From the NCBI RefSeq assembly GCF_036365525.1, contig NC_090393.1, forward strand, positions 20,693,195-20,757,194: 64,000 nt of DNA, written 5' to 3'. Every line of letters begins with the position of its first letter. Position 1 is the first letter of the stretch. Below, piece by piece: positions 461 through 44,072 of this stretch. The stretch comes from Heterodontus francisci (lineage: Eukaryota). The position numbers were made by a program, and so were the translations under genes. A model generated the notes under the pieces. The model searched no databases. It saw nothing but the letters and a program-made list of their open reading frames with translations, and had not been told where the DNA came from.

Positions 461-913
461 TCAAATCTCCCTGCCACCACGGAGACGCAGGTTGATGTTG
501 ATGAGAGAATGGTGCTTAATTTCATAATATTCCAGTGTGTATCTGTCTTCTAGTGGCCTCGACTGAAAGGTCAGGTAGTACTGGTGTGACGAAATGTGCT
601 CCAGGGATTCAATTTTATTTTTCAGACTCAAAACTGTGTCAGTTGGCAACACTTCAATTTTATGCTTACGTCCCTCTGCATTCTTAACGGATATCTCGAT
701 GAATAAGTGGAGTGTTGCATCAAAGAATATTCCAGACTCCAGCAAGGATTTGTTGTCAATGAGCATGGTTTCATTAAACCTCAGGCGTTGCTTGTGAGCT
801 GGAATGTTCTGGTCTTGCTGGATTCGTTCCTTGATCATTGAGATCTTGTTGTCAATGTTGACATTCAGGCGAAATGACAAACCGCCCAGGCCGATGACAA
901 AACCCTTCACTGG
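461..913 (-). CDS. OASL: OASL-A exon 6: tandem ubiquitin-like domains, LRLRGG-REI
   Basis: Acceptor ttttgttctcgtcttag|CCA, phase 0 with exon 5; two UBL patterns; TGA at 461-463. Confidence 0.88.
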   Translation of the reverse strand, partial: PVKGFVIGLGGLSFRLNVNIDNKISMIKERIQQDQNIPAHKQRLRFNETMLIDNKSLLESGIFFDATLHLFIEISVKNAEGRKHKIEVLPTDTVLSLKNKIESLEHISSHQYYLTFQSRPLEDRYTLEYYEIKHHSLININLRLRGGREI

Positions 914-3900
914 CTAAGACGAGAACAAAACATGACATTAAAAATATCTTTTTTTATTTTGGGGGGGCAGCAAAAGACAGTCAGTGATGTTCTTTTTTCA
1001 TAAGTTTTTCAATAATTATATTTCCCTAATTTTCTTGCTGTCTCTCCTGATTGATTCTTGCTGGGGTGATAACCAGACTCCAGTACCTCACAGAAATGGC
1101 CACTGTTCTTGTATAAGCTTAGACAGTAAGTGTTGTTCACCATTCAACAAAGTCTGATCCTGTACTTAACTGATGATCACACATGTACAATATATGGTCA
1201 GTGGGAATCTCAGCTGCTTCTTTCCCCACCTCCCATGCAGGGGTGCTGAGGCCAATTGTAGCAGTCCCACAGTCACCCAGCTGACACCAGCTAATTCAAT
1301 ACGGACTGAGGATTGAAGCTGCGGAGTTTCTGACTTTCCATATGCCTTTAATACTTGACAGCTGGGCTATGATTACCAGCCCAAATGAAAAGAATGAAAT
1401 ATCCAATTAAGGATTGAGGTAAGTGATGAGAACAATGGCCTTTCACCTCAGTGATCTGAATTCCGATCTATTCTCGACAGAAGCAACTCTGGGATCTAAC
1501 AACACAATCTACGGAATTTCTACTATAGACATTGCCTTGTATCAAAACGTTATCATTTATTAAAACTGTTTTACCTGGACATCCCATTCTCGGACTCCAG
1601 AGACACATAGCATGTTCATGCATTTCACGGCCTCATTTACCATCACGTCCCATCCAGTAGATGAAGCAACATTTCCAGTTGGATCAGCTGGGTCAAGAAT
1701 AATTGGCCTGAAAAATAAAAAGGCCAGAGTTTGCTGGAAACTGATGGTGAGTTTAATGATACTCTCTGTTATTAGTGTGGAAATCATCCAGCAATTCTGT
1801 TGCAAGGAAGCGATACCCATGAGTTGCCCATTGCTATAAACTGCTGGTCGATTTGAGCTGCTCTGTCAATAGCTTCACTGTCAACCTCCTTGTGCAGTTC
1901 AAGAAATTGCTGCATTTGTGTATTATTTAGGAATTAACCTCATGCAGAAAGTCAGTGTTCCAACACAGCCACCTGCCTGCCCTGCCTCCAGACTGCACAA
2001 AACAAGGTGATGTTGGCTGTGTCAAGCTGGGGAATGTTGCCCAGAATCTCACTAAGGGGCCTACTCAGAAAAAAGTAAATTCTGCCTTCATTCCTCTTCT
2101 GCTCATCAGGAAACTGGCACACCATTTCTCACTCAGTTTATTGATCTTCCAACTGGGTCCCTTTGAGGCCAAGGATACATGAAATTACAGCCTAGAGAGT
2201 TCTTACCCTCAGCCTCAGCTTTGTCAGTGGCCTTGTGTGGGCCAGGAAGGGGCTCCAGTCCCTAATTCTGGAACCATTTAAGAACCAATAGACACTACAG
2301 AGAAGGGTCTTTCTGGATGGGTGATTTAAGATGGATCGTTCGGCCTTCCTGATCCGTAATTCTATTGTGATATTGTAAATTGCAGCAATTTGCATTTATA
2401 TAGCACTTTTAATTTCATAAACATTCCCAGACATTTCAGACAGAAGAAACAGATGCTGAGCAGGAATAGAATCCGAGGATCTGACCAAAGGTTTTCAGGA
2501 GGTTATTGAAAGTGGGAGAATTTGTAGTGAGGTGAAGAAATTTCTGGAGAGTTCCATAAAGTGGGACCAAAATGGCTGCAAGCTTTGCTACTGATGGCAA
2601 ATAAGAGGAGGTTCAGGGGGAATGAGCTGGAACAATGGCTGGAGGAGGTTGCAGATCAAGTGTAGGATGAAGAGATGAGTTGGTAATGAGATTTGTAAAT
2701 AAGGGTAAAGATTTTAAGACCTTAAAAATTAGTTGAGGAAGGAGCTACAGCAGAATATTTGGTGGGAGTTAAACACGGGCCGGAATTTTACATTGGGTGG
2801 GAGGCCCTGCCCACTGGCTGAAAAGTCGATGATGAGTGTGCCTCCGCTGGGCCTGGGAGCCAGGCTGGGATTTTACAATCCCCAGGTCCTAAACTGGTCT
2901 TGAGTGGGATTTCCACCTCCTTGAGGCAAGAAGTCCCACCTAATGGAGCTGCCGGCCAATCAGTGGGCCGGCAGCTCTTAGTCCCAACAGCACCACCAGG
3001 AGCAGTGGCCACTGCTGGGACTACACCCTGCCATTGGAGGCAAAAGGAAGGATGGCCCTGGAACTCAGGTTAAGTGTTTAGGACCTTGCCGGGGACAATT
3101 GCCTGGGCCCTGGCGAGGCACGTTAGTTGGGTGGAGGTGGAGGGAGGAGAGTGTTGTGCATTGGGGGTGGTTGGAGCTTCTGGGTAGCCCTCTGAGGGGC
3201 ATAGGGTGCCCAATTAGGAGAGCCCACCCCCAGCCTGCAAGAAGGCCACGTTGTTTAACCAGGCAGGGTTCTTGGGGCATTTGCCATCTGGCCACCTGGG
3301 GTAAAATATCCGTGGTGGCGGGAGGGGGCCCTTAAGTGGCAGTTAATTGGCCATGTAAGGGCCTTGATTGGCCTGGGGTGGGCTGGCCGTATCTCGCCTC
3401 TGCCGCCCTGTGTAAAATTGCCGTGGGGGCAACCCCCCCACCTCCCACTCAATTTTACACCCCCTCCACCGCACACCTCCCCCCCCACCCACCCCCCACC
3501 ACCAGCCTGCTCAATGTGGGGGCATAAAATTCCAGCCACAATCTTGCATTACAATGGAGCATTGTCAGGACTGCTGCCTCTTAGGCACATTTTCATACTT
3601 GAACTGTGTGTCAGGTTGACTCTCACTGCTAATATTGAGCTGCACATCCATCACATTCAAATAACGCAGCCAACATGTCACTTATTTGTCACCCATGATG
3701 CCAAAGTTAAGGACAAATATTAACGATCAAGTGAACTGGACCCCAAATATTTCTTGAATCGGCCCCGTTACTTGGGAGCTGTTCAAAGAAGTGAAGCAGC
3801 TCTAATTGGTATAGTTTTAAACAGGGTTGAAGATTTTACCTGTTGCCACTCAGTTTCTTTATTAGAAAGTCTGCAACGACTCTATTATTGACATCGTACT

Positions 3901-6900
3901 CCTTGGTCCAGTAGATGCACAGCTCCTGATATCTGCAGATCAGTTTCAGGACTGTTCGGAAACCATCAGCCATGACAAATCTTTCCTGTCCACTTCCTTG
4001 CTCCCAGGCATAAATAGTCAGCAGCTCCACTGCATACTTAGCAGGCAGGCGTGCTCCAGCTTTCAGCTCAAATTTCCGTGGCTTCACATACTAGGGTAAA
4101 TGGTTGACAAATATAAAGACAGAAATGTGATATTTCAAGTATTCACTCCTCCTCCCATCCTGTATTTTGGTTTCCATACTGTGATATTTTATTATTCTAA
4201 CCGGACCAAACAACTTCCCTGATAGTGCCAGCTGGGGCTATACCCAGCCCAATACTGCTGTATAAGCATTCGCTAAGAAGTCCACCACATCTGCCCAGAA
4301 TGGCCCTCATTCCAACTCTTTCTCGTTCCATTGGATGAACTGCCTAATCTCTGCACAAAGATAAGGCTGAGAAGACAAACTCTCCATGTGGAAACTGTAG
4401 ACATGAACCTATAGAATAGTGGGTTGGAGAGTCAGGAGTCAAAAGAAAGGAAGTTCTTGGAATTAGACTGAACTGAAATTGGGCCTCGGGCATTATCAGC
4501 AAATTGCTGGGAATCTGCGGATGCCAATCAGATACAAAACAGCAGCTCATAGGCTCCAGGAGACCAAAGTTGGGCCAGCTGCCTCTCCAGGAACGGCCAT
4601 CAGATAGTGAGAGGGTGGGGAGGTAGGTGATGGTGGGCCGGCAGCAGTCTTCAGGAATGCTGTGGAACTGGGAGAAGTTCTAGGAAGTGCCTCTTGGCTC
4701 CACATAAAGACAAGTATAAAAAATGTACTTACATTGAGGCCACTTGTCGACGCAAAAATCTGAAGGGGAACAGATCCGATGCGTACGTCACGTCCTTAAA
4801 GAGCCATTAGGCCCCTCATTAATATAGTCAAGGAGCCGAGCGCCTGTTTTGAACAGCTGCCCAGGATACTGTAAATTGTTTGAGGCCATTATAGCATTGG
4901 ACATATTTCAGGCACCTTTGGTGTTGATTTTTGTGCCTATTTCCACTGGAAAAATAGCACAAGTATCAATTTCTAACCCATTGTTTTTCAATTGATCCCT
5001 CAGTTATGAACTAACTTTTGTTTGATTCTCTTTTGCTGTGAATTCTAGAGTTACTTGGCAATGGAAGATTGGATGGAGCCTTTGGTTGTAAATTGAAGGA
5101 TACTGATGAAAAATGGAGAAGGTCACTCGAAGACACACTGTTCAGGGACTGGGTGAAAAGTAAAAGATTTCAGGGTAAAAACCCTGATCCTCACTCCAAA
5201 TGGGAAGCCATGGTCGAAGGATTGAGGCTCCATTTCTGACCATGTTTCTCAGTCCACAAAATATGGGATCAGGGCATTTGCTCTTTAATTGCTTTGAGAA
5301 TCAAGATCTGGTATAACATGTGTTCAACCTAAACCAGAAGATGTACAGGAGTTCTCCCCTTCTTCCAAATTATTTTCAACAGAGGAGAAGCAAGAATCTT
5401 TATTTATTCAAATACTGACACTGACTTTCTATGGGTTTGTCAACCTCCAGTTGTAATTTCAGTGGAGACTGGTGGAACTCCCAGAGAAACAGCACAAATG
5501 GACATTTCTCCAAAAGGTTTGGCTATCTCCCACCATGCAATCATTCCAGGTTTTCATCTGCAGTGTTTGTCAATGGAGTAGCTACTGGTGGAAGTCGAGA
5601 CACAGAAGGAAGCAATCTTTTTATTTTTGGTGCAACAATCCTCCCAAATCCTCCAAGCATTAAACAACTTCCATGTTCCCCAATCACTCACCTGTTTGTA
5701 CCAATATTTTAGCAGGCGAATCAAGTCTTTAAGTTTTGAAGGACGTTGCTTCACAAATTTTCTCTGAAGCTCAGTAAAACAGGCCGAAAATTCCCCATTT
5801 ACATCTTCATTTTCATTTACAAAATTGATCAGCTCGAGATGGGCTACACTTGCATTGTCCTGTCCCACTGCAAGATATTAAATGATTAATGAACATCTTC
5901 CTGCACTTGCAAGTGTATCAGAAGACAGGTACTCAACAAAAGCAATCCAATTAGATCATTACTCTAATAGACCATTTATATCTGCTTTTTAGTGGATGCT
6001 TCCTAATTTATTTAATCTCATGAAAGCTTCTCACATTCCCAAAGGTGCCCACAATTAGGTGTCTATAGATAGAGCCATAGAGTCATTTACGGCGTAGAAG
6101 AAGGCCATTCTCATCCCATCCCACAGTAAGAGGATTGATACTTGACCTGGTCCAAAGTATCTGCAGAGCAAGAAGGTCCCAGGTTTTAGTCCTTATCTCA
6201 GCCAGGGTAGCAGTGGATAACTACAAGTGATCTCAGTGTCCCTGGTTTGGGAAGTGATATAAAATATAGTCAAATATAGTAGTTTTTTGATACCTGATCA
6301 CTACCCAGTGACCCCTTCTGGAAAGTGTACTACGTGTGGCCATCAGATACCAACATAGGAATTCGGAGCAGGAGTTGGCCACTCGGCACTTTGAGCCTGC
6401 TCCGCCATTCAGTAAGTTCCTGGCTGAACTGACTACTCCATATTTCCACCTACTCCTGATAACCTTCCATCCCCTTGCTTATCAAGAATCTATCTTCCTC
6501 TGTCCTTAAAAATATTCAAAAACTCTGTTTCCCATTGCCTTTTAAGGAAGAGAATTCCAAAGACTCAGAACCCTCTGAGAGAAAAAAATCTCTCTTAAAT
6601 GGGCAACACATCTCTTTTCTCACCCTTTGCCCTCTCTAACAGAACACAAATACTGCCAGACATACTGAGTCTTTTCAGCATTTTCTGCTATTATTTCAGA
6701 TTTCCAGCATCCACGGTATTTTGCTTTTGTTTTGCTGTTGACACTCTTGTCTTGGTATGAGAAATGATCAGCTGGGAAAAGTACCAGGGCCTTTTGGTGG
6801 CCAAGAAACGGAATCACTTCCTTTAGAAAAGGAGGGAAAAGAGAACAAATCTCAGACATTAACTTAAAGAAACAATCCTGGGTCGATTTTCAGAGTTATT

Positions 6901-8977
6901 ATCTGAGACTTCCCATCATCATCATTGTGTTAACGCCAATGTTAAAATGATGCCAATCATAAACTGGGGCTAATATGCCTCATGACTTCTCCTGTTAAGG
7001 GTCCGCAATATATCTGTGATAGTCTATTGTATCTGATCCTATCAGAAAAGCGAATTGAAACATATTCCTCCCAACAACAACTCTAATAATAAATGGAACT
7101 CAGCTCTGCATCATCTGAACTAGGAACAGAACATGTGATGGAGCAAAGTGGATAACGTGCACTTTATTCCCGTCTTTCTTGATGAGTAGCAGAGGCTCAT
7201 TGAAGAATTTAAATTAAACTGGAGCTTTAATGATATAAATTGTTATAAATTCTTACTTAATGCATCAAAGGTTGGCAAAACATCAAAATTCACACTGCCT
7301 GAATTCTTCTTTGATTTCAGTGTGAAGCTCATGGATTTTGGCGGGATGCCGCTGTTCTGTGTTATAGTGATATTGATATCACTGATCTCATACGCAATGC
7401 TTGATTTACATATTTCCAGTATTTGCTGAATTTCCTCAAGAATTTCATGCCTGGTTTCCCTCTGGTCCTGGAAATTCTTGAAACAACTGAGGAAGACGAC
7501 CAGATCCGCATCTGAGCCCTCTCTTAAAGCTGTTCCTTTCCCTGATGATCCTCCCTGAGGAGAGGAGGAAGAATAAAACATTATTTATGTATTATTTATA
7601 TTTCAGATACTGGTGAACTTACCCATTCCTTAAATATTGCATAAAGATAACGCCATTTGTTTTCTTCAGTCTTGAACAATCAGGCTCTCTGTATCATTGC
7701 TTTGAGCTCGGAATTCACACTGATACAATGTTTGCTGCCACTTTCCTTTTGATCTTTTCCCTCTTGCCCTCTTTTCATGAAGCTGCTGACTTGCTGAGAC
7801 AGTTTCACGAGCACTCATCAGCAATTCCCCGAATTATCTATTCTTCATATGTGGTCTTTGGCCACAGGTGTCAACAGGCTATTCAACTATGCCGAGAATC
7901 GCAACTCAATTTTGTCCTGTACATATAAAGTAGACTTTCAGCAAAGGTGACTGGAAAGTGAGCAGGATTGGAGACCCTGGGCTGATAGTCCTTCTTACCG
8001 AGTGCGTTGTGGTCAATTTTAACACCTACACCTGTCATCAACAGAGTGGTTTTGCCCTATTTGAGGATTTGGGGGTGTGGGGGGGGGGGCTTGCTATAAT
8101 TCCTGTCTTTCCCATCTTAACCACTGACAGAGCCAGTGCTAAGTCAGAATCTACTAAATAACTTTCTGTTTAAGCATGAGAATAAAATCATAAGATGCAA
8201 ACCACGTCTTTCTCTCTTTCTCTCTGTCTGAATTGGAAACTCACATTATTGTATCCCTTTAGAATTAAAATTGTTTTAAAAGTGTGTTGTCACTTTAAGA
8301 ATTCGAACTCTTGTTGATTTTGAGGAGCATATTTAAAGCATGTTGTACTTTTGACAGCGGTACATCTCAATGAAGTTCTTTAAGAGGAACAGATTTGAAG
8401 TAAATGTTCCCTTTAACAGAAGTCCATCGAAAGGCACAGAACCTTTAAAACAAGCAGGTCAAAAACATTCTGTCCCTTCGGGTAAAAAATCCCCATTTGG
8501 TCCAGATTTTCCGAGAAACATTCGACATCTACACAGAATTCCCAGGAAATGATGGCGATCTCACCCAATCCCGTTAATTTAGATGAGATACTGGAGGCAA
8601 CTGGCACTGGTGGAACTGAATCCCACAGCGAGACCACAACATTTGGAGAAATGGAGTTTAGCGCAGAAAACAGGAAATTTAATGTTTCAAAATGAGCAAT
8701 CACGAGAAAACATCTCCATACTTAAGCAAGGCAAGGTACCTGATATTGAAAATAGTAATTTATTGTAAACACTAGTAATTCCATAATCTCCATGAAAATA
8801 ACTTACTTTAACAGCTCTGATCACTTTGATCGTGGGTTGTTTGATAAAACATCGATTCCTTAAAAAATCGCAGATTCTGTGCACTGCGTTCCTCACTTTG
8901 ATGTTAAATTCATTTGGTTCCAGGTTATTTTTAATGAAATCGTCCAGATTCCTGGGTTCAGTTTCGTATAACCCCAT
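461..8977 (-). CDS. OASL: OASL-like gene copy A: OAS domain + two UBL domains, 493 aa; join complement(8807-8977, 7257-7554, 5692-5867, 3840-4090, 1575-1707, 461-913)
   Basis: Six exons with GT-AG junctions stay in frame (intron phases 0,1,0,2,0; 1482 nt). Kozak accATGG at 8977. OAS motifs: [69 protein letters not shown]. Last exon encodes two UBLs ending [10 protein letters not shown]. Confidence 0.93.
1575..1707 (-). CDS. OASL: OASL-A exon 5
   Basis: Acceptor ttttcag|; [13 protein letters not shown]...WDVQ; donor CAG|GTAAAA. Confidence 0.92.
2778..3537. mobile_element. GC-rich non-autonomous TIR element (Harbinger-like MITE) in OASL intron 4; copy at 31739-32513
   Basis: Termini GGCCGGAATTTTA ... 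TAAAATTCCAGCC. Confidence 0.6.
3840..4090 (-). CDS. OASL: OASL-A exon 4
   Basis: Acceptor ccctag|; [14 protein letters not shown]...GFRTVL...LCIYWT; donor AG|GTAAAA. Confidence 0.92.
5692..5867 (-). CDS. OASL: OASL-A exon 3
   Basis: Acceptor ttgcag|; [11 protein letters not shown]...[11 protein letters not shown]; donor CAG|GTGAGT. Confidence 0.92.
7257..7554 (-). CDS. OASL: OASL-A exon 2 (nucleotidyltransferase core)
   Basis: Acceptor cctcag|; [16 protein letters not shown]; donor A|GTAAGA. Confidence 0.92.
8807..8977 (-). CDS. OASL: OASL-A exon 1 ([16 protein letters not shown]...KVIRAVK)
   Basis: OAS N-terminal LDxFI motif; donor AAA|GTAAGT. Confidence 0.9.
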
Positions 8978-9020
8978 GGTTCCAGCTTTCACACAATGTG
9001 AGGTTGGTGTGACCGCAGTT

Positions 9021-9236
9021 CCTTATAAACCAGTTGCCGCGCCTTCTTTAAATATTCCAAAAATAGACGCAATTATTAAGACTTTCCAACTAACATATGA
9101 CATGCTGTCCATCAATGATTTGGATCTCCACCCAGTACAAAGTTTATATTTGCCGCTGATTCCACATCAACCGAAAATCCGTTTCAATTTCCTCAGAAAT
9201 TTCGCTCTGTTGAATTAGCTTTCAGTTTCATTTCCC
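9021..9236 (-). promoter_or_regulatory. OASL-A promoter: TATA-like box and two ISRE clusters
   Basis: Minus strand TTTATAA (about 9023-9029), GGAAATTGAAAC (9181-9192) and GGGAAATGAAACTGAAAGCT (9217-9236) matching GAAANNGAAA. Confidence 0.75.
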
Positions 9237-10129
9237 CAGTTAGCAGAGCAGTCCGTAAATTTCAACACCTTACAGGCACTGATCACGAGTTAATAAAAAG
9301 AAAGGCTTCCGTTCACGACCACAAGATGTCCCAAAGCCTTTACAGCCAATGAAGCATATTTGCAGTGCAGTCACTATTTTAATGTAGGAAAGTAATGGAA
9401 AATATAACCGTAGCTTCCTTCCTTCCAACATCTCAAGTATGTAATCGGTGCCGATTTTACAGCACAGTCTGACAGGGGAAACGACCAAGAAAATACATCT
9501 CTGAAATTCACTTTTAATCCCAAAGGGAATTTGTTAGAAATAATCCAACTCTAAAGTTGGAATCCCTGCCACAGTGCTGCTGACATGCCTGCCTTCAGAG
9601 GAGAACTGCAGCCACAGTATTGGATTCTTGGGATCTAAATGTTCATCTGTGGCCCCTTTAGTTTTCTATTTTGATCCCTATTCCTCTCTCTTTCTTCAAG
9701 GTGTTGATTCATATTATGCTACCACCAGTCCCCAGTTCCTCACTGAGGTTTGATGTTACAGTCAGAGGCATCAAAGCTGAGCCCTGCCTGATCTCAGTCA
9801 ACAGCTCAGCTTCTGCCATTTCTGCCACTCGCGAAGTGATATCAGCACCAAACAGATCTTCCCCTCCTCTGCCCTGCCCTCCCAGCACTCCAAAAGGATT
9901 GTTCCCTCTGTTACATTCAGGTTCACTTTTCCATCATCTTTACACCTTTCTGCCTTGCCTTAGTACCTTTGCATGTAAGTACAGAAGATGCAACACCTTC
10001 CCTTTCACCTCTTCCCACACCACTGTTCACATCCTTAAATGCTCCTTCTGTCTGAGCCTCAGCACTACATTAGTTTTCATATGTACAGCGAAAACACCTA
10101 GCTCGACTTCACCACCACCTCTCTCGACT

Positions 10130-10920
10130 CCTCCACTGTTATTAAATTATCAGGCTGCTTATCTGACATCCATTACTGGATGAGCAGAAATGTTTTCCAA
10201 TTAAATATTGGGAAGACTGAAGCCATTATTTTTAGTCCATGCTCCAGACTCCATTCCTTAGCTCCCGACTCCATGCCTCTCCCTGGCAACAGTCTGAGAT
10301 TAAACCAGTCTGTTCGCAATCTTGGTGTCGCATTTGATCCTGAGATGAGATTCTGACCTCATATTCACGCCATCACAAAGGCCGCCTCTTTTCACCTCCA
10401 TAACATCATTTGACTTCGCCCCTGTCGCAGCTCATCGGCTGCTGAAACCCTCATTCATGGCTTCGTTACCTGTAGACTTGACTATTCCAATGCACTCCTG
10501 ACTGATCTCCTACATTCTACCCTCCATAAACTGGAGGTCATCCAAAACTCTGCTGTTCATGTCTTAACTCACACCAAGTTCTGTTCCTCTATCACCCCTG
10601 TGCTCGCTGACTTACATTGGCTCCTGGTCAAGTAACATCTTGATTTTAAAATTCTCATCCTTGTTTTCAAATCCCTCCATGCCTCGACACTCCCTATTTC
10701 TGTCATCTCCTCCAGCCCCACAACCCTCCAAGATATCTGCACTCCTCTGATTCTGGCCTCTTGAGCATCCCTGATTATAATCACTCGGCCATTGGTGGCT
10801 GTATCTTCAGTTACCTAGGGCCTAAGCTCTGGAATAGCCTCCCCAAATCTCTCTGCCTCCCCACCTCGCATTCCTCCTTTGAGACACTCCTTAAAACCTA
10901 TCCCTTTGATGAAGCTTTTG
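10130..10920 (+). mobile_element. L2-type LINE 3' fragment
   Basis: Degenerate LNIGKTEAI, RNLGV.FD, AETLIH.FVT.RLDYSNALL motifs. Confidence 0.7.
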
Positions 10921-11600
10921 CTTCTTCTTCTTTGGCCTCCTTGTCTCGAGAGACAATGGGTAAGCGCCTAAAGGTGGTCAATGGTTTGTGAAGCAGCGCT
11001 TGGAGTGGCTATAAAGGACAATTCTAGAGTGACAGACTCTTCCACAGGCGTTGCAGATAAAATTGGTTGTCGGAGCTGTTACACAGTTGGCTCTCTCCTT
11101 GCACTTCTGTCTCTTCTCCTGCCAACTGCTAAGTCTCTTCGACTCGCCACTCTTTAGCCCCACCTTTATGGCTGCCCGCCAGCTCTGGCGATCACTGGCA
11201 ACTGACTCCCACGACTTGTGGTCAATGTCACAGGACTTCATTTCACGTTGGCAGACATCTTTAAAGCGGAGACATGGATGGCCGGTGGGTCTGATACCAG
11301 TGATTAGCTCACTGTACAATGCGTCCTTGGGGGTCCTGCCATCTTCCATGTGGCTCACATGACCAAGCCATCTCAAGCGCCGCTGGCTCAGGAAGGTGTA
11401 TATGCTGGGGATGTTGGCCACCTCGAGGACTTCAGCATTGGAGATACTATCCTGCTACCTGATGCCAAGGATTCTCCAGAGGCAGCAAAGATGGAATGAG
11501 TTGAGACATCGCTCTTGGCTGACATACGTTGTCCAGGCCTTGCTGCCGTAGAGCAAGGTACTGAGGACACAGGCTTGAAACACTCGGTTGTGTTAATGGG
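10921..11600 (-). mobile_element. RTE-clade LINE 3' fragment
   Basis: ORF 10978-11421 RRLRWLGHV..M...R.PK..LYSEL, CxxC zinc motif, (GAA)n tail. Confidence 0.8.
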
Positions 11601-12549
11601 ACAAATATTACAGATCCCCCCGTGGTCGAGGGTTGTGGTGAGGGGGCCGGAAAATGCCTCCATGAGAGGTCCGCCTGGGCCTTGATGCCGGGAAGGTTCG
11701 GCCTGATATTGCTGGCAGCGGCGAGGCCTCGTGGCAGCCCCGCTTTCCTCCCCCACACCACCCCCCCACCAGCCACTCGACGACAGGGGCCACATCTGAA
11801 TATGTTAATTAATTTAAATTAACAAATAAATTACCGACCTGCTCCCGACGTCTGCTCTGGAGCGATATTGCTGCATGTGGCTGGCACTCCCGTGCCCTCG
11901 GGTCCCCATCCGGGGATCCAAGGAGGAACACTGCTGGGGAGGGGGCAGCAGGTAAGGTTTACAGTGCAGGGTTGGGGAGTAAGTGGTATCAGATTCATGT
12001 CATTGGTCTAGGGGTGGTGGGAAGGTCTAATGTTTAAAGTTTATGAACTTTGGGGGGAAGGTCAAGAGCACGAGGTAAGTGCTTTGAGGGGGGAGAGGGC
12101 AAGTAATGAATTTTATGGTCGTTGCGGGGGATGGGAGAGGGTCAGGATTACTTTCTTTAATTTTTTAATTCATTTTTCTTTAAATATTTAAATTGCTCTG
12201 CGGGGCTCGAAGCCCTTTAAAATGGCATCAGCACCTACGGAAAGTCTGCTGACACCATTGCCGGGTATGGACCGCCCACCTCCTCCACATCATAGGATAA
12301 TAATATCGCGGTGGCTCCGTTACGTGCAGGCCGCACAGGCAGACCACCACAGTTCATGGCAGCGGACATGTAAAATGTAGCCCAATATCTTCTTATGTGG
12401 CTTGGTGTCATGTTTTGTTTAAATGCTCCTGTGAATCTCCTTGGGACATTTTATTATATTAGAGGTGCTCTATAAATAAAGGTTGTTGTTGTTGAAACAT
12501 CAATTTACATGTTCTTCCTCCAAGCTAATACAAAGTATTTGCTGCTCAC

Positions 12550-12760
12550 GCTGCAGTCTCCTCTGCATTAGGGAAACCAATTAGCAGATTAGGTGATCGC
12601 ATTGCTGAACGCCTCTGTTCTGTCGACTAGTGTGACATCAAACTCCCGGCCATTGGCCAATCCATCCCATTTCCACTCACACTCAGGCCACTCTATCTTT
12701 GGCCTTCTACGTTGTTCCAATGATGTTCAACGTAAGTTTGAGGAACAGCATTTCATTGAG
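12550..12760 (+). mobile_element. Penelope-like (GIY-YIG end) fragment
   Basis: Degenerate GLL.C....QRK.EEQH motif; split by a CR1 in unit B. Confidence 0.5.
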
Positions 12761-13430
12761 ACACGTGGTAGTTCTCTGGTTTTAACAACTTGAGACAGCT
12801 CCCATTTTCGCACATGGAAGTAGGTGCTGGACATGTGGTATAGATTTGCTGCTGTTTCTGGAGTGGGCGGGGAGAGGGGGCAAGGTGCAGGTTGGAACCT
12901 CCCTCAGAACAGTAATGGTACAGTGGTCTGCGGCCTGAGGAACAGGGCTAAGGCATAGCTGGTCAGAATTTCCAACACTGATTAAGTTTATGGAGGTGCC
13001 TTCCATGCTGTAAACATTGTACTCCTAATCTGAAGCAACAAAGGAACATGAGAAACATGGAAACTTGGGTCCAGAACAGCAGTTAAAGTGAGCAAGTGTC
13101 AGGATATTAGGATAGATTTGTTCACTGGAGCACTCTTGCAGCTCGAGTACCCAGCATGACATGGAAGTGACCCTGACCCGACAATGTGGGATGTGATCCT
13201 TGGCTTTGTGTTTAGACAGGGAAAGGGGTTTCGCTCCACCTCTCTTGTCCTGCTGGAGTGAAACTGCTGGAATTTGAGGCCCGGAGGTTTTCATGAGATA
13301 AATTAATTGATTGGTGTGATGCACTGTATTTTCATATGTTGTATTGTTCAAGCCCTGACTACAGGAAGCAGGTCCTCTGCGTCACATCTCAGCTGATGCT
13401 ACTCTGTTGTTATTTTTGACTGTGGCAGCA

Positions 13431-13640
13431 GAAAGGAACCTGAAAGTGAGAGAGATGGGAGCCCAGTACCTGTTACCTGGAGCCAGGTTCTCTCTCTGCT
13501 GCTGACTGCAATGTCATTTCCCGGACACAGAGGGGAGTTTTGGGGAAATGAAAGTTGTTTGTTATAATAGAGCCGGAGATGTCAGGCAATCAGAGTACAG
13601 CAGGGCTGTGACGTTCAGAAAGTGGGTCTGACAATAAAAG
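13431..13640 (+). promoter_or_regulatory. ISG15-A promoter: IRF-E/ISRE-like sites, CRE half-site, TATA-like
   Basis: GAAAGGAACCTGAAAGTGA (13431), GAAATGAAAGT (13545-13555), TGACGT (13609), AATAAAA (13633); the same layout is conserved in the third paralog. Confidence 0.6.
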
Positions 13641-13664
13641 GAGAGGAGGGAGCCAGAGACACAG

Positions 13665-13856
13665 CCAGATCGGATTGTTTCCCGAGAGTGGCAGAGAAAT
13701 CACGGAGCAGTTGAAGCAGAGAGAGTTTTATTCACTCATTGCAGAGAATCGGTGTGAAGGAAAACAGAAAAAACAAACTGCGCAGGAAAAGTGAATCAGA
13801 CACGATTCTACAGAACAACTTCTGATTCACCTGGGCTTGTGCTTCCAGCAAGGATT
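13665..13856 (+). other. ISG15: ISG15-A non-coding exon 1 (start approximate); intron 13857-14857
   Basis: Homologous to 53475-53636; donor |GTGAGG; branch CTGAC and acceptor tcaacag| at 14857. A 5'UTR intron is typical of fish ISG15. Confidence 0.6.
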
Positions 13857-14869
13857 GTGAGGTAGCCTGTCTTTTATTTAGGAATCCCAATATTCTAATT
13901 CTAAACTTTAAAATGGGATGTTTTGAAAATTAATGAAATACACAGTTTAAAATAAGTTATTATTATTATCTGAACCGGGAGAGGAACATTTTAAAAATGC
14001 AACCTGTAAGTTACTGTAGACAATATTAAGCAACGTCTGCTATAATGCATGAAGTATTTATTATCTAATATTATCAGGATAATTCCTTGTTTTTAAATAG
14101 AATGGCTGAGTCTGAGATGAACCATTTCTGTACAGGATAACTCTCTGCTGAGTGGTTTTTACATAACTGGACAGATTTCATTCATGGACCACTGTATCAA
14201 AGAAAACATTCTACTCAATGCAAGGGTGCTTTTCTTGTCTATTGGACTAGAGGTGTCCTGGCTTCTGGTTCAGAGAGTTATATGGGCGGTTTCTTTAATA
14301 TGATCCTGAAACTCTGTGGCCATTTTCCTCCATTTACACACATTCTCTAGATTCTGCTGATGACTTGCTGAGGTTATGGTGGAAGATGAGGAGAAAACCC
14401 ACAGAATTTCTGGGCCCATGTTTTTATGTCCCCATTAACCTGAGTCTCAGACTCTGAAATGTTACACTGAAAGCTTCTTCAGGCGGCTGACCAGTATTGC
14501 AACTCAGTAACCAGCAGACCCTCGAGTTTCTGAAGATTTTATCAATGTCAGGATAGGGCAGCAAAGATACAACCAAATGCAAAAGGCAGAACAGATTGGA
14601 AATCTGCCACTTTTTCTTGGCTGGAAGTAAAGAGTTTGGGAAGAATATTGGTTCCTTCGGGATTCAGATGTCAATAGGAAGGAAGACTTGGGGATTAGTG
14701 TAGGTGAACCTTACACAAGAATTGATCCCAGCTTCTGTCTGTACAGCTAATGCTTGGGAGAATGTGTTGTGAGTTTTAAATTCTATCATTTATTCCTTGC
14801 AATTGATTTGTGATATAAAGTGTCCACATCACTGACATCCTGTTCATTTCTCAACAGCAAGTGAACAAG

Positions 14870-15337
14870 ATGAGACTCCAGGTGAAGTTTATGACCGGTG
14901 AGATTATCGAACTTGTGATCGACCCTTCCATCCAAGTGTCGGCTCTCAAGATGTTGATATTTGAAAAGAGCAAGGTGCCCTATTTCCAACAGCGTCTGAT
15001 GGTGCAAAACGGGAGCAGTGTGGAGCTGAAGGATGACAAGAGGCTGTCCGACTACAATGTCTCTCCCAGCGACGCTGTCCTGCTGCTTGTCAAGAATGAG
15101 CAGTGCATGCAGATATTCCTGCAGAATGACAAGGGGAAAACATCTACATACGACGTTCTTCCCTCTGAGTCAGTTCAGGCTTTTAGAGCACGAGTACAAC
15201 GGCAGGAGGGTGTCCCAGCCAACCAGCAGCGCCTGATGTATGAGGGGAAACAGCTGGAAGATGGTCGATTGCTCTCTGACTACAATATTCAGCCTCAGGG
15301 CACCATCTTTCTCCTGCTACGTCTACGGGGGGGTTAA
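14870..15337 (+). CDS. ISG15: ISG15-like di-ubiquitin protein copy A, 155 aa, ends LRLRGG*
   Basis: Two UBL domains; FQQRL in N-lobe, [16 protein letters not shown] in C-lobe (fish ISG15-like); aagATG just after the splice acceptor. Confidence 0.9.
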
Positions 15338-29424: not shown

Positions 29425-29877
29425 TCAGATCCCCCTGCCACCACGGAGACGCAGGTTGATGTTGATGGTACAATGATGCTTAATTTTGTAATATTCCAGT
29501 GTGTATCTGTCATCTAGCTTCATCGTCTGAAAGGTCAGGTAGTACTGGTGTGACGGAATGCGCTCCAGGGATTCAATTTTATTTTTCAGACTCAAAACTG
29601 TGTCAGTTGGCAACACATTAATTGTCAGGTTACGTCCCTCTGCATTCTTAACGAATATCTCCATGAATAAGTGGAGTGTTGCATCAAAGAATATTCCAGA
29701 CTCCAGCAAGGATTTGTTGTCAATGAGCATGGTTTCATTAAACCTCAGGCGTTGCTTGTGAGCTGGAATGTTCTGGTCTTGCTGGATTCGTTCCTTGATC
29801 ATTGAGATCTTGTTGTCAATGTTGACATTCAGGCGAAATGAGAAACCGTCCAGGCCGATGACAAAACCCTTCACTGG
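29425..29877 (-). CDS. OASL: OASL-B exon 6: tandem UBLs, LRLRGG-RGI
   Basis: Acceptor cttag|CCA; 18 substitutions versus A. Confidence 0.88.
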   Translation of the reverse strand, partial: PVKGFVIGLDGFSFRLNVNIDNKISMIKERIQQDQNIPAHKQRLRFNETMLIDNKSLLESGIFFDATLHLFMEIFVKNAEGRNLTINVLPTDTVLSLKNKIESLERIPSHQYYLTFQTMKLDDRYTLEYYKIKHHCTININLRLRGGRGI

Positions 29878-32800
29878 CTAAGACGAGAACAAAACAGAAG
29901 ATAGAAATTTTTTTGTGGGGTGGGGGGGGGCAGCAAAAGGCAGTCAGTGATGTTCTTTTTTCATAAGTTTTTCAATAATTATATTTCCCTAATTTTCTTG
30001 CTGTCTCTCCTGATTGATTCTTGCTGGGGTGATAACCAGACTCCAGTACCTCACAGAAATGGCCACTGTTCTTGTATAAGCTCAGACAGTAAGTGTTGTT
30101 CACCATTCAACAAAGTCTGATCCTGTACTTAACTGATGATCACACACGTACAATATATGGTCAGTGGGAATCTCAGCTGCTTCTTTCCCCACCTCCCATG
30201 CAGGGGTGCTGAGGCCAATTGTAGCAGTCCCACGGTCACCCAGCTGACACCAGCTAATTCAATACGGACTGAGGATTGAAGCTGCGGAGTTTCTGACTTT
30301 CCATATGCCTTTAATACTTGACAGCTGGGCTATGATTACCAGCCCAAATGAAAAGAATGAAATATCCAATTAAGGATTGAGGTAAGTGATGAGAACAATG
30401 GCCTTTCACCTCAGTGATCTGAATTCCGATCTATTCTCGACAGAAGCAACTCTGGGATCTAACAACACAATCTACGGAATTTCTACTATAGACATTGCCT
30501 TGTATCAAAACGTTATCATTTATTAAAACTGTTTTACCTGGACATCCCATTCTCGGACTCCAGAGACACATAGCATGTTCAAGCATTTCATGGCCTCATT
30601 TACCATCACGTCCCATCCAGTAGATGAAGCAACATTTCCAGTTGGATCAGCTGGGTCAAGAATAATTGGCCTGAAAAATAAAAAGGCCAGAGTTTGCTGG
30701 AAACTGATGGTGAGTTTAATGATACTCTCTGTTATTAGTGTGGAAATCATCCAGCAATTCTGTTGCAAGGAAGCGATACCCATGAGTTGCCCATTGCTAG
30801 AAACTGCTGGTCGATTTGAGCTGCTCTGTCAATAGCTTCACTGTCAACCTCCCTGTGCAGTTCAAGAAATTGCTGCATTTGTGTATTATTTAGGAATTAA
30901 CCTCATGCAGAAAGTCAGTGTTCCAACACAGCCACCTGCCTGCCCTGCCTCCAGACTGCACAAAACAAGGTGATGTTGGCTGTGTCAAGCTGGGGAATGT
31001 TGCCCAGAATCTCACTAAGGGGCCTACTCAGAAAAAAATAAATTCTGCCTTCATTCCTCTTCTGCTCATCAGAAAACTGGCACACCATTTCTCACTCAGT
31101 ATATTGATCTTCCAACTGGGTCCCTTTGAGGCCAAGGATACATGAAATTACAGCCTAGAGAGTTCTTACCCTCAGCCTCAGCTTTGTCAGTGGCCTTGTG
31201 TGGGCCAGGAAGGGGCTCCAGTCCCTAATTCTGGAACCATTTAAGAACCAATAGACACGACAGAGAAGGGTCTTTCTGGATGGGTGATTTAAGATGGATC
31301 GTACGGCCTTCCTGATCCGTAATTCTATTGTGATATTGTAAATTGCAGCAATTTGCATTTATATAGCACTTTTAATTTCATAAACATTCCCAGACATTTC
31401 AGACAGAAGAAACAGATGCTGAGCAGGAATAGAATCCGAGGATCTGACCAAAGGTTTTCAGGAGGTTATTGAAAGTGGGAGAATTAGTAGAGGTGAAGAA
31501 ATTTCTGGAGAGTTCCATAAAGTGGGACCAAAATGGCTGCAAGCTTTGCTACTGATGGCAAATAAGAGGAGGTTCAGGGGGAATGAGCTGGAACAATGGC
31601 TGGAGGAGGTTGCAGATCAAGTGTAGGATGAAGAGATGAGTTGGTAATGAGATTTGTAAATAAGGGTAAAGATTTTAAGACCTTAAAAATTAGTTGAGGA
31701 AGGAACTACAGCAGAATATTTGGTGGGAGTTAAACACGGGCCGGAATTTTACATTGGGTGGGAGGCCCTGCCCACTGGCTGAAAAGTCGATGATGAGTGT
31801 GCCTCCGCTGGGCCTGGGAGCCAGGCTGGGATTTTACAATCCCCAGGTCCTAAACTGGTCTTGAGTGGGATTTCCACCTCCTTGAGGCAAGAAGTCCCAC
31901 CTAATGGAGCTGCCGGCCAATCAGTGGGCCGGCAGCTCTTAGTCCCAACAGCACCACCAGGAGCACTGCTGGGACTACACCCTGCCATTGGAGGCAAAAG
32001 GAAGGATGGTCCTGGAACTCAGGTTAAGTGTTTAGGACCTCGCCGGGGACAATTGGCCGGGCCCTGGCGAGGCAAGTTAGTTGGGTGGGGGTGGGGGGAG
32101 GAGAGTGTTGTGCGTTGGGGGTGGTTGGAGCTTCTGGGTAGCCCTCTGAGGGGCATAGGGTGCCCAATTAGGAGAGCCCACCCCCAGCCTGCAAGAAGGC
32201 CACGTTGTTTAACCAGGCAGGGTTCTTGGGGCATTTGCCATCTGGCCACCCGGGGTAAAATATCCGTGGTGGCGGGAGGAGGCCCTTAAGTGGCAGTTAA
32301 TTGGCCATGTAAGGGCCTTGATTGGCCTGGGGTGGGCTGGCCGTTTCTCGCCTCTGCCGCCCTGTGTAAAATTGCCGTGGGGGCGGAACGGGGTCAGGAA
32401 TAGTAACCCCCCACCTCCCACTCAATTTTACACCCCCTCCACTGCACACCTCCCCCCCCCCGCCCCACCCACCACCACCAGCCTGCTCAATGTGGGGGCA
32501 TAAAATTCCAGCCACAATCTTGCATTACAATGTAGCATTGTCAGGACTGCTGCCTCTTAGGCACATTTTCATACTTGAACTGTGTGTCAGGTTGACTCTC
32601 ACTGCTAATATTGAGCTGCACATCCATCACATTCAAATAGCGCAGCCAACATGTCACTTATTTGTCACCCATGATGCCAAAGTTAAGGACAAATATTAAC
32701 CATCAAGTGAACTGGACCCCAAATATTTCTTGAATCGGCCCCGTTACTTGGGAGCTGTTCAAAGAAGTGAAGCAGCTCTAATTGGTATAGTTTCAAACAT

Positions 32801-35800
32801 GGTTGAAGATTTTACCTGTTGCCACTCAGTTTCTTTATTAGAAAGTCTGCAACGACTCTATTATTGACATCGTACTCCTTGGTCCAGTAGATGCACAGCT
32901 CCTGATATCTGCAGATCAGTTTCAGGACTGTTCGGAAACCATCAGCCATGACAAATCTTTCCTGTCCACTTCCTTGCTCCCAGGCATAAATAGTCAGCAG
33001 CTCCACTGCATACTTAGCAGGCAGGCGTGCTCCAGCTTTCAGCTCAGATTTCCGTGGCTTCACATACTAGGGTAAATGGTTGACAAATATAAAGACAGAA
33101 ATGTGATATTTCAAATATTCACTCCTCCACCCATCCTGTATTTTTGTTTCCATGCTGTTATCTTTTATTATTCTAACCGGACCAAACAACTTCCCTGATA
33201 GTACCAGCCGGGGATATACCCAGCCCAATACTGCTGTATAAGCATTCGCTAAGAAGTCCACCACATCTGCCCAGAATGGCCCTCATTCCAACTCTTTCTC
33301 GTTCCATTGGATGAACTGCCTAATCTCTGCACAAAGATAAGGCTGAGAAGACAAACTCTCCATGTGGAAACTGTAGACATGAACCTATAGAATAGTGGGT
33401 TGGAGAGTCAGGAGTCAAAAGAAAGGAAGTTCTTGGAATTAGACTGAACTGAAATTGGGCCTCGGGCATTATCAGCAAATTGCTGGGAATCTGCGGATGC
33501 CAATCAGATATAAAACAGCAGCTCATAGGCTCCAGGAGACCAAAGTTGGGCCAGCTGCCTCTCCAGGAACGGCCATCAGATAGTGAGAGGGTGGGAGGTA
33601 GGTGATGGTGGGCCGGCAGCAGTCTTCAGGAATGCTGTGGAACTGGGAGAAGTTCTAGGAAGTGCCTCTTGGCTCCACATAAAGACAAGTATAAAAAATG
33701 TACTTACATTGAGGCCACTTGTCGACGCAAAAATCTGAAGGGGAACAGATCCGATGCGTACGTCACGTCCTTAAAGAGCCATTAGGCCCCTCATTAATAT
33801 AGTCAAGGAGCCGAGCGCCTGTTTTGAACAGCTGCCCAGGATACTGTAAATTGTTTGAGGCCATTATAGCATTGGACATATTTCAGGCACCTTTGGTGTT
33901 GATTTTTGTGCGTATTTCCACTGGAAAAATAGCACAAGTATCAATTTCTAACTCATTGTTTTTCAATTGATCCCTCAGTTATGAACTAACTTTTGTTTGA
34001 TTCTCTTTTGCTGTGAATTCTAGAGTTACTTGGCAATGGAAGATTGGATGGAGCCTTTGGTTGTAAATTGAAGGATACTGATGAAAAATGGAGAAGGTCA
34101 CTCTAAGACACACTGTTCAGGGACTGGGTGAAAAGTAAAAGATTTCAGGGTAAAAACCCTGATCCTCACTCCAAATGGGAAGCCATGGTCGAAGGATTGA
34201 GGCTCCATTTCTGACCTGTTTCTCAGTCCACAAAATATGGGATCAGGGCATTTGCTCTTTAATTGCTTTGAGAATCAAGATCTGGTCTAACATGTGTTCA
34301 ACCTAAACCATAAGATGTACAGGAGTTCTCCCCTTCTTCCAAATTATTTTCAACAGAGGAGAAGCAAGAATCTTTAATTATTCCAAATACTGACACTGAC
34401 TTTCTATGGGTTTGTCAACCTCCAGTTGTAATTTCAGTGGAGACTGGTGGAACTCCCAGAGAAACAGCACAAATGGACATTTCTCCAAAAGGTTTGGCTA
34501 TCTCCCACCATGCAATCATTCCAGGTTTTCATCTGTAGTGTTTGTCAATGGAGTAGCTACTGGTGGAAGTCGAGACACAGAAGGAAGCAATCTTTTTATT
34601 TTTGGTGTAACAATCCTCCCAAATCCTCCAAGCATTAAACAACTTCCATGTTCCCCAATCACTCACCTGTTTGTACCAATATTTTAGCAGGCGAATCAAG
34701 TCTTTAAGTTTTGAAGGACGTTGCTTCACAAATTTTCTCTGAAGCTCAGTAAAACAGGCCGAAAATTCCCCATTTACATCTTCATTTTCATTTACAAAAT
34801 TGATCAGCTCGAGATGGGCTACACTTGCATTGTCCTGTCCCACTGCAAGATATTAAATGATTAATGAACATCTTCCTGCACTTGCAAGTGTATCAGAAGA
34901 CAGGTACTCAACAAAAGCAATCCAATTAGATCATTACTCTAATAGACCATTTATATCTGCTTTTTAGTGGATGCTTCCTAATTTATTTAATCTCATGAAA
35001 GCTTCTCACATTCCCAAAGGTGCCCACAATTAGGTGTCTATAGGTAGAGCCATAGAGTCATTTACGGCGTAGAAGAAGGCCATTCACATCCCATCCCACA
35101 GTAAGAGGATTGATACTTGACCTGGTCCAAAGTATCTGCAGAGCAAGAAGGTCCCAGGTTTTAGTCCTTATCTCAGCCAGGGTAGCAGTGGATAACTACA
35201 AGTGATCTCAGTGTCCCTGGTTTGGGAAGTGATATAAAATATAGTCAAATATAGTAGTTTTTTGATACCTGATCACTACCCAGTGACCCCTTCTGGAAAG
35301 TGTACTACGTGTGGCCTTCAGATACCAACATAGGAATTCGGAGCAGGAGTTGGCCACTCGGCACTTTGAGCCTGCTCTGCCATTCAGTAAGTTCCTGGCT
35401 GAACTGACTACTCCACATTTCCACCTACTCCTGATAACCTTCCATCCCCTTGCTTATCAAGAATCTATCTTCCTCTGTCCTTAAAAATATTCAAAAACTG
35501 TTTCCATTGCCTTTTAAGGAAGAGAATTCCAAAGACTCAGGACCCTAGAACATAGAACATAGAACATTACAGCGCAGTACAGGCCCTTCAGCCCTCGATG
35601 TTGCCGACCTGTGAAACCATCTGACCTACACTATTCCATTTTCATCCATATGTCTATCCTCTGAGAGAAAAAAATCTCTCTTAAATGGGCAACACATCTC
35701 TTTTCTCACCCTTTGCCCTCTCTAACAGAACACAAATACTGCCAGACATACTGAGTCTTTTCAGCATTTTCTGCTATTATTTCAGATTTCCAGCATCCAC

Positions 35801-38273: not shown

Positions 38274-38489
38274 CCTTATAAACCAGTTGCCGCGCCTTCT
38301 TTAAATATTCCAAAAATAGACGCAATTATTAAGACTTTCCAACAAACAAATGACATGCTGTCCATCAATGATTTGGATCTCCACCCAGTTCAAAGTTATT
38401 ATTTGCAGCTGATTCCACATCAACCGAAAATCCGTTTCAATTTCCTCAGAAATTTCGCTCTGTTGAATTAGCTTTCAGTTTCATTTCTC
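38274..38489 (-). promoter_or_regulatory. OASL-B promoter with TATA-like box and ISREs
   Basis: GGAAATTGAAAC (38434-38445) and GAAATGAAACTGAAAGCT (38470-38487) on the minus strand. Confidence 0.75.
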
Positions 38490-42165: not shown

Positions 42166-42375
42166 GAAAGGAACCTGAAAGTGAGAGAGATGGGAGCCCA
42201 GTAGCTGTTACCTGGAGCCAGGTTCTCTCTCTGCTGCTGACTGCAATGTCATTTCCCGGACACAGAGGGGAGTTTTGGGGAAATGAAAGTTGTTTGTTAT
42301 AATAGAGCCGGAGATGTCAGGCAATCAGAGTACAGCAGGGCTGTGACGTTCAGAAAGTGGGTCTGACAATAAAAG
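42166..42375 (+). promoter_or_regulatory. ISG15-B promoter
   Basis: Copy of 13431-13640; GAAATGAAAGT at 42280-42290; non-coding exon ends 42591, acceptor at 43592. Confidence 0.6.
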
Positions 42376-43604: not shown

Positions 43605-44072
43605 ATGAGACTCCAGGTGAAGTTTATGACCGGTGAGATTATCGAACTTGTGATCGACCCTTCCATCCAAGTGTCGGCTCTCAAGATGTTGATATTTGAA
43701 AAGAGCAAGGTGCCCTATTTCCAACAGCGTCTGATGGTGCAAAACGGGAGCAGTGTGGAGCTGAAGGATGACAAGAGGCTGTCCGACTACAATGTCTCTC
43801 CCAGCGACGCTGTCCTGCTGCTTGTCAAGAATGAGCAGTGCATGCAGATATTCCTGCAGAACGACAAGGGGAAAACATCTACATACGACGTTCTTCCCTC
43901 TGAGTCAGTTCAGGCTTTTAGAGCACGAGTACAACGGCAGGAGGGTGTCCCAGCCAACCAGCAGCGCCTGATGTATGAGGGGAAACAGCTGGAAGATGGT
44001 CGGTTGCTCTCTGACTACAATATTCAGCCTCAGGGCACCATCTTTCTCCTGCTACGTCTACGGGGGGGTTAA
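43605..44072 (+). CDS. ISG15: ISG15-like copy B, 155 aa, protein identical to copy A
   Basis: Only two synonymous differences from 14870-15337 were seen. Confidence 0.9.

Follow-up and report, generated by a model that had tools for sequence, protein, structure and literature searches.

Where do the two ubiquitin-like (UBL) domains of OASL and of ISG15 come from? OASL is an OAS protein with a tandem UBL tail (a di-UBL), and ISG15 is a free di-UBL protein. In humans the two genes are on different chromosomes. Published work dates the gain of the UBL by OAS to early jawed vertebrates and names no donor, and the prior literature notes only the resemblance between avian OASL and ISG15. We analyzed a 64-kb stretch of the 6.0-Gb genome of the shark Heterodontus francisci (contig C23, 20693195-20757194; hereafter the window). 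It contains OASL and a likely orthologue of ISG15, head to head and duplicated jointly, and we think it likely that this arrangement is a preserved ancestral OAS-ISG15 locus of jawed vertebrates. With both genes at one locus, and with a coelacanth OAS that has an ISG15-type tail, a common origin becomes testable by synteny and phylogeny. If true, it would account for the twin ubiquitin-like module in OASL and ISG15 and for the use of OASL as a modifier in birds.

The form called OASa.U (NTase-OAS1_C-UBL) is described as ancient, with an origin that predates the last common ancestor of jawed vertebrates, and OAS-RNase L of the ghost shark was active in yeast (PMC10400998). The main text of that paper mentions neither ISG15 nor synteny and does not address the source of the UBL, whereas the shark locus has both genes. 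Fusion of a UBL onto OAS has been proposed without a donor (PMC6307210). A literature search, with subscription papers outside its coverage, found no report of OASL-ISG15 linkage. In the records examined, the shark free genes carry the label 'polyubiquitin-like' or are uncharacterised, and many OAS genes are fused in chimeric models; surveys that rely on annotation would therefore miss the arrangement.

OASL and a free di-UBL gene form a duplicated head-to-head pair

We found that the cluster consists of two known kinds of gene, real, intact and spliced, in an arrangement that we did not find described. A first-pass annotation of the window had read an OAS gene with two UBLs and a free gene with two UBLs pointing away from each other, with each di-UBL in one terminal exon and the pair repeated at 29425-44072. 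All of this was borne out: OASL-A is on the minus strand (8977-461) and the first free di-UBL is on the plus strand (14870-15337). That gene list contained both pairs and overlooked a third free di-UBL (56245-56718) and an OAS gene to the left of the window. The genes are as follows; the free genes are named for the assignment made below.

461..913, minus strand: terminal exon of OASL-A, with both UBL domains, LRLRGG plus the 3-residue extension REI, and a phase-0 acceptor; the joint 913/1575 was found in 4/4 runs
8806-8977, 7257-7553, 5692-5867, 3839-4090 and 1575-1706 (about; some edges +/-1), minus strand: coding exons 1-5 of OASL-A, OAS domain
29425..38230, minus strand: OASL-B, intact, six exons, ending LRLRGG-RGI
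13648..13861, plus strand: non-coding exon 1 of ISG15-1; contigs end at 13470 or 13648, so the start is approximate; GT donor after 13861
14858..15337, plus strand: coding exon of ISG15-1; acceptor 12 nt before the ATG, coding sequence (CDS) 14870-15337, 155 aa, ending LRLRGG
42279..44072 (promoter site 42279; CDS 43605-44072), plus strand: ISG15-2, protein identical to that of copy 1, two silent changes
56233..56718 (CDS 56245-56718), plus strand: coding exon of ISG15-3, an unpaired older paralogue, 93% aa identity, ending LRLRGG-FL

Splicing was read from contigs of four runs (two samples, two studies) that we presume to be RNA. The contigs bridged all five introns of OASL and the intron of ISG15-1 (13862-14857, GT..AG) in 4/4 runs. 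The six coding exons of OASL-A join in a single frame of 493 aa that contains NTase, OAS1_C and tandem UBL, as expected of OASL / OASa.U, and ends in LRLRGG-REI. Its OAS domain has the GGSSGKGT loop, SDADLVVF and FDVLP. All three catalytic aspartates are kept, and by this triad OASL-A fits the active OAS type, with activity predicted. The free gene has two exons, with the whole di-UBL inside exon 2, and its two tandem UBL domains have no internal LRLRGG.

Self-comparison showed a second OASL plus ISG15 unit ~29 kb downstream, which matches the first in five blocks (96.7-98.6% identity). OASL-A and OASL-B differ at 22 residues, and 16 of these are in the second UBL and tail, at or after residue 415. 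At the best-supported positions that differ, contigs from both samples had unit-B or copy-3 letters. Because contigs lose minor variants, absence of unit A cannot be inferred from them; contig depth was not used to rank genes, and missing unit-A letters were not taken as silence.

The free gene is most likely ISG15

Judged by its sequence, the free di-UBL gene is most likely a true ISG15 orthologue. In a tree of 27 rows, the shark free di-UBLs, platyfish ISG15 and the di-UBL tail of a coelacanth OAS formed one clade (97/89, starred) apart from polyubiquitin. The first-pass annotation had proposed that grouping with FAT10 or polyubiquitin would speak against ISG15. The gene did not group with polyubiquitin, and FAT10 is absent from the tree. 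A weak test of FAT10 came from searches: it was absent among the best 60 PDB matches, and an atlas gave two ISG15 clusters (0.95 and 0.94) and Ubiquitin D (0.93).

A query with residues 1-125 gave 28 matches, 27 from sharks, rays or close relatives and one a platyfish protein (45% identity) from a cluster named ISG15 in part. Residues 3-96 aligned with residues 5-98 of human ISG15 at 47.7 bits, compared to 40.7-42.6 bits per stretch, with a 3-residue gap, for linear ubiquitin chains. The equivalent of human F41, which has a described interdomain role (PMC8764230), is F39; the position is aromatic (F or Y) in 16/19 sequences, and NxKG is kept in 19/19. We considered and rejected polyubiquitin as the identity of the free gene. 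It has no near-identical 76-aa repeats, is 30% and 54% identical to ubiquitin, and the real polyubiquitin is on contig C30.

Two observations weigh against the assignment. Over the whole protein, linear di-ubiquitin is the closer match (42-44% identity, compared to 34-37% for mammalian ISG15), and the trees are without mammalian or reptile ISG15, FAT10 or chimaera rows; no tetrapod ISG15, FAT10 or chimaera sequence was among the matches of the homologue searches. Zebrafish ISG15 is likewise reported to be closer to di-ubiquitin than to mammalian ISG15 (PMC5381560).

No ISG15-like locus besides the three copies was found in the genome, and among 50 ubiquitin-family matches, none was on contig C37, which has agrin. 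Synteny of the mammalian type (HES4-AGRN) was not found, with the agrin NtA domain on C37 and no UBL match there among 110 candidates. Salmon ISG15 also is without HES4-AGRN flanks, so this synteny does not define the family. Ten other UBL loci of the genome were read, and over the stretch covered none encoded a di-UBL like ISG15 or FAT10. ISG15 and di-ubiquitin could not be told apart with an AlphaFold model (pLDDT 85, pTM 0.56) and Foldseek.

Teleost ISG15 (platyfish P0168, salmon ssISG15.1-6, Asian seabass ISG15A/B) resembles the shark gene in length (155-157 aa), LRLRGG end, an intron in the 5' untranslated region (UTR), upstream IRF-type sites, tandem copies and a nearby PXMP2. The layout of a non-coding exon 1 and one coding exon is also that of teleosts (PMC9680060). 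The teleost genes are in the same clade, yet only 47% identical, and, unlike the shark genes, have no OAS neighbour; teleosts are reported to be without OAS (10.1101/693333). Mammalian ISG15 shares the co-linear di-UBL, the F41 position, the NxKG-x-x-x-TY strand and LRLRGG. It differs in identity (34-37%), in the human ATG in exon 1, in its HES4-AGRN site and in the C-terminal extension that shark copies 1 and 2 lack.

Two other loci were seen in these searches. A divergent, intronless exon for an E1 ubiquitin-fold domain (UFD), possibly a UBA7 relative, is at C44:7976174-7976422, and a gene with one divergent UBL, ending in KVWGG, is at C28:7385490 and repeated on C28 and C262.

Linkage in other sharks and rays

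The first-pass annotation had allowed that the linkage might be limited to this assembly, and it is not. Both genes were on records of equal length in 10/11 other elasmobranchs that had both proteins and a length on record (Heptranchias, Cetorhinus, two Scyliorhinus, Mustelus, Hemiscyllium, Mobula birostris, Hemitrygon, Hypanus and Rhinoraja). In addition, a chimeric OAS model from a second shark (P0195; 91% identical to basking-shark OASL and 73% to that of H. francisci) contains antisense ISG15 (63% over 38 aa, E 2e-9) between the OASL tail and the next OAS unit. Antisense ISG15 is similarly placed in the model from H. francisci, which indicates the same head-to-head order.

Some results temper this. 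The miss among the 11 was the whale shark, whose scaffolds are short. The accession numbers of the two genes were within 25 of each other in 4/7 species and distant in 3/7, and adjacency is an inference from them. Antisense ISG15 was found in 2/84 OAS-bearing proteins, one of them H. francisci's own; the 82 misses are uninformative. The evidence for linkage across species thus consists of record lengths, the order of accessions and a single chimeric model, not of DNA. Based on these results we consider it very likely that OASL-ISG15 linkage is common to elasmobranchs.

Age of the locus

A clade of only shark free genes and shark OASL tails was rejected by the approximately unbiased (AU) test (p-AU 0.003), so the two di-UBLs diverged before the split of sharks and bony fishes. 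The order of genes is INPP5J-type gene, OAS-UBL-CaaX, OASL, ISG15, OASL, ISG15, ISG15, P2X receptor, POLE and PXMP2-type gene; the first of these is the left flank and the last three are the right flank. Flanking gene names beyond the Pfam family rest on characteristic motifs and gene order. The PXMP2-type exon, which we take to be PXMP2 from such motifs and a Pfam family match, is ~390 kb from ISG15-3, beyond POLE. The 5' end of POLE was not located in the right flank.

Teleost ISG15 and the shark locus had one neighbour in common, PXMP2. The salmon neighbours of ISG15 are genes of human 12q24, where TPCN1-IQCD-CFAP73 flank OAS1-3. In salmon, ISG15.1 lies between PXMP2 and RBM19, and ISG15.2 is flanked by TPCN1 and IQCD; the human gene has HES4 and AGRN as its neighbours (PMC12234341 supplement). 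Two observations do not fit so well: a PLBD-type gene is 18 Mb away in the shark, and PLBD2 is another neighbour of salmon ISG15; and zebrafish and human ISG15 are called syntenic in PMC5381560, which would argue against a move in amniotes, although the listed flanks of the salmon and human genes have no gene in common.

Coelacanth OAS provides a second link. The models H3BDF0 / XP_014342322.1 repeat the gene order of the shark locus: an OAS with a di-UBL comes first, and after it, in the same orientation, a single-UBL OAS whose end is of the CaaX type. In contrast to the shark, the tail is of the ISG15 type rather than the shark-OASL type, with Ile at the position of the start Met of free ISG15. 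A profile search identified the Latimeria model P0207 with this tail, which model P0344 also has. That of P0207 is 52% identical to shark ISG15 and 32% to the shark OASL tail. The coelacanth tail scored 141-166 bits against 10 shark free di-UBLs and 57-84 bits against 8 shark OASL tails; over all comparisons, it scored 125-166 bits against every free di-UBL and 39-97 against every OASL tail. In the N-domain tree it fell outside the starred clade (97/91) of 20 other OAS-attached UBLs, which includes the coelacanth's own. These are predicted gene models, and forcing the tail among OASL tails was not rejected (p-AU 0.224, 0.327 and 0.098), both of which count against the link. The tail may have come from exon exchange, it may be ancestral and slow to evolve, or it may be a neighbouring ISG15 that annotation joined to the OAS in error. 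Any of the three ties ISG15 to OAS outside sharks.

The proposal of the first-pass annotation that this is the ancestral jawed-vertebrate locus gains indirect support from the PXMP2 neighbour in salmon and from the coelacanth tail. Direct evidence for a free ISG15 beside an OAS gene is confined to chondrichthyans, with no bony-vertebrate case shown. On balance, linkage of OASL and ISG15 was probably ancestral to jawed vertebrates.

Alternative explanations

The pair itself is real, and we asked whether its second copy, or the name of the free gene, could have another explanation. It is very unlikely that unit B reflects an error of assembly, with two haplotypes placed one after the other, or copy-number variation in the individual. 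The units differ by only about 1% over most of their length, and unit-B letters were in the contigs of both samples at the best-supported differences, as this explanation expects; but contigs drop minor variants and are no proof of the absence of unit A. There are no N in the 464 kb of locus and flanks read, the units differ by two kb-scale segments (listed below) and by a patch of 6-9% divergence over the OASL terminal exon, and other sharks and rays also have tandem copies on record. It is unlikely, though somewhat less so, that the free gene is a fish-type di-UBL that is ISG15-like in function and not the orthologue of mammalian ISG15, which would then have arisen separately, for example, from an OASL-type tail exon that was copied and relocated to the HES4-AGRN region. 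The flanks of salmon and human ISG15 listed in the PMC12234341 supplement have zero genes in common, and the intron position differs between fish and human ISG15 (PMC9680060). The second UBL of shark OASL matched mammalian ISG15 C-domains at 47-52 bits and single ubiquitins at 43-45, and shares with human ISG15 a YYLTF/FWLTF-like strand. However, the shark free gene scored 88 bits against human ISG15 and the OASL tail scored 58-59. The free gene is also co-linear with human ISG15 and keeps the F41 position, and 10.1101/693333 takes the zebrafish and human genes to be 1:1. ISG15 orthology remains the preferred reading.

It is also possible, if rather improbable, that the linkage is real and common to sharks and rays and arose in cartilaginous fishes, from genes on the same ancestral chromosome that were later brought together, with the di-UBLs derived separately from polyubiquitin. 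All of the direct adjacency evidence is chondrichthyan. The shark OASL tail and shark ISG15 are 27-29% identical, and each is 38-42% identical to di-ubiquitin; independent origins of the two di-UBLs were not rejected (below). In contrast, the coelacanth OAS with an ISG15-type tail requires proximity or common ancestry outside sharks, and PXMP2 is common to salmon ISG15 and the shark locus. Furthermore, in an alignment, a T/A-Y-x-V strand motif was present in the OASL tails of bird, lungfish and coelacanth and in ISG15, and not in ubiquitin. An origin of the linkage before the split of sharks and bony fishes fits these results better.

Possible common origin of the two di-UBL exons

The first-pass annotation had suggested that one di-UBL exon arose from the other by local inverted duplication. 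The common origin is favoured by our results, at about an even chance; the direction and the inversion are not readable from the data. In a cross-domain tree of 28 rows, the N domains of both genes grouped together (92/89), as did the C domains (81/73), with neither node starred. In addition, both exon acceptors are four codons before ubiquitin position 1 (OASL read against H. perlo), and a partial catshark model starts there too.

Two findings pull the other way. Independent origins of the di-UBLs were not rejected (p-AU 0.079 and 0.178). The acceptor argument is weakened by shark polyubiquitin, which has an in-frame acceptor 6 nt before the ATG, and by a 3-codon deletion at the acceptor side of the H. 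francisci OASL exon. Two long-branch marsupial tails were left out of the domain trees, and Rhineura was left out of the OAS tree (21 rows), in which the deep nodes, including the placement of shark OASL relative to mammalian OASL, were open.

Shark OASL resembles avian OASL (chicken, PDB 7SBI; PMC8764230) in its catalytic aspartates, di-UBL and LRLRGG plus short extension. Conjugation has been shown for chicken OASL, and its structure is ISG15-like (PMC8764230). Birds are without ISG15, whereas the shark retains both genes, adjoining. UBL1 of shark OASL lacks the loop insertion found in tetrapod OASL.

A possible history and function of the locus

In the history that we favour, one di-UBL exon would have been duplicated before the split of sharks and bony fishes, with one copy remaining free (ISG15) and the other spliced onto OAS. 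Teleosts would have lost OAS and retained ISG15 in its chromosome region, amniote ISG15 would have relocated, and birds would have kept only the OASL version. A bolder reading, to which we give slightly less than an even chance, is that ISG15 and the OASL tail are sister exons that arose by local duplication when the first jawed vertebrates had a single OAS locus under interferon control, a locus that survives in sharks and rays. An ISG15-type exon would have been re-captured by OAS in the coelacanth lineage, or never have diverged. ISGylation and conjugation of avian OASL would then be one system in two forms, free in teleosts and fused in birds.

In the living shark, interferon or virus would act through IRF/ISGF3 on the sites of each gene, of the interferon-stimulated response element (ISRE) type, and OASL and ISG15 would be induced together from two neighbouring promoters rather than one common promoter. 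OASL is predicted to bind double-stranded RNA and to make 2',5'-oligoadenylate (2-5A) for RNase L. Trimming of its short extension could allow conjugation through LRLRGG, as in chicken OASL. ISG15 copies 1 and 2 would be ready for conjugation as made, and copy 3 would need removal of two residues.

Promoter motifs and spacer

The sites and spacer segments are as follows.

9182..9235, minus strand: two ISRE-type sites upstream of OASL-A, GAAATGAAACTGAAAG and GAAATTGAAAC; based on motifs, function inferred
38435..38488, minus strand: ISRE-type pair of OASL-B, based on motifs
13431..13553, plus strand: degenerate IRF-type sites of ISG15-1, with GGAAATGAAA at 13544, aligned with the stronger copy-3 sites
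53228..53346, plus strand: strong ISRE array of ISG15-3, GAAATGAAACAGAAACCGAAAC and GAGAAACGAAAC, based on motifs
9248..12290: 3.0-kb segment of unit A with no counterpart in unit B, made up in part of LINE-like repeats; gained in A or lost in B
12291..13543: spacer that the two units share, about 1.27 kb, lying between the sites of OASL and those of ISG15
38903..41419, plus strand: 2.5-kb long interspersed nuclear element (LINE) with a reverse-transcriptase frame, presumably CR1-type, inserted only in the unit-B spacer

The first-pass annotation had placed ISRE-type sites at both genes, with promoters ~4.2 kb apart. Strict sites GAAANNGAAA were present twice at each OASL 5' end (9182-9229 and 38435-38482) and twice at ISG15-3 (53234-53249). 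There were none at the 5' ends of ISG15-1 and ISG15-2, which had GGAAATGAAA instead (13544 and 42279). The spacing between OASL and ISG15 sites was close to that proposed in unit A (4.3 kb) and shorter in unit B (3.8 kb), and only the spacer of about 1.27 kb was common to the two.

Across the window there were 10 matches to GAAANNGAAA compared to 4.78 expected; 6/100 shuffles reached 10, so enrichment was not clear. For RGAAAYGAAA, a pattern picked post hoc, 6/6 matches in the window were at the five gene 5' ends (0.96 expected), and the 400 kb of flanks had 7 additional matches. These motifs suggest that OASL and ISG15 may be under ISRE-driven control; against this, strict sites are missing at the first two free copies. 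A bidirectional promoter pair has starts within about 1 kb and common elements. This locus departs from that pattern: the site sets are distinct and 3.8-4.3 kb apart, and two neighbouring promoters fit better than a single bidirectional one.

Other OAS genes and neighbouring features

A further OAS gene is on the minus strand at C23:20662438-20671734, 21-31 kb to the left of the window. It has one divergent UBL and a CaaX-type end, WCILM; two ISRE-type sites are found ~3.5 kb upstream of coding exon 1. Similar CaaX-type ends were present in shark, ray, coelacanth, caecilian and amphisbaenian models. This suggests an ancient class of prenylated OAS, which we presume to be comparable to human OAS1 p46. 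In the caecilian Rhinatrema (P0198), OAS units with a single C-type UBL and an LRLRGG end are beside an OAS whose UBL is N-type and whose end is of the CaaX type. A lone OAS1_C match was found outside the cluster (C4:77231773-77231976).

We also considered and rejected multi-unit OAS-UBL proteins at the locus: each unit has its own stop and promoter motifs, with a gene on the opposite strand between. Public shark and ray 'OAS2/OAS3-like' models (P0121, P0122-P0129, P0141, P0175, P0192 and P0195) appear to be chimeras of tandem single-unit genes. Chimerism was shown for P0121, which reads through stops and antisense ISG15; a chimeric OAS model is also on record for Heterodontus francisci, 100% identical to the locus.

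OASL-A and OASL-B differ most at the edge of the unit. Between positions 266-1000 and 29230-29964 of the window, which cover the terminal exon of OASL with its 3' UTR, divergence is 6-9%, compared to mostly about 1% elsewhere. The last 81 codons have 19.5 replacement and 4.5 silent changes, and the OAS domain has 4 and 0. Positive selection on UBL2 was not shown (replacement changes per site, pN, 0.104; silent changes per site, pS, 0.085), and the divergent patch runs into the 3' UTR. We read the patch as an older or converted stretch at the unit edge. Finally, a retrovirus-like gag-pol stretch with long open frames (reverse transcriptase and RNase H by Pfam) is at about 20.606-20.611 Mb of C23, ~50 kb to the left of the OAS cluster.

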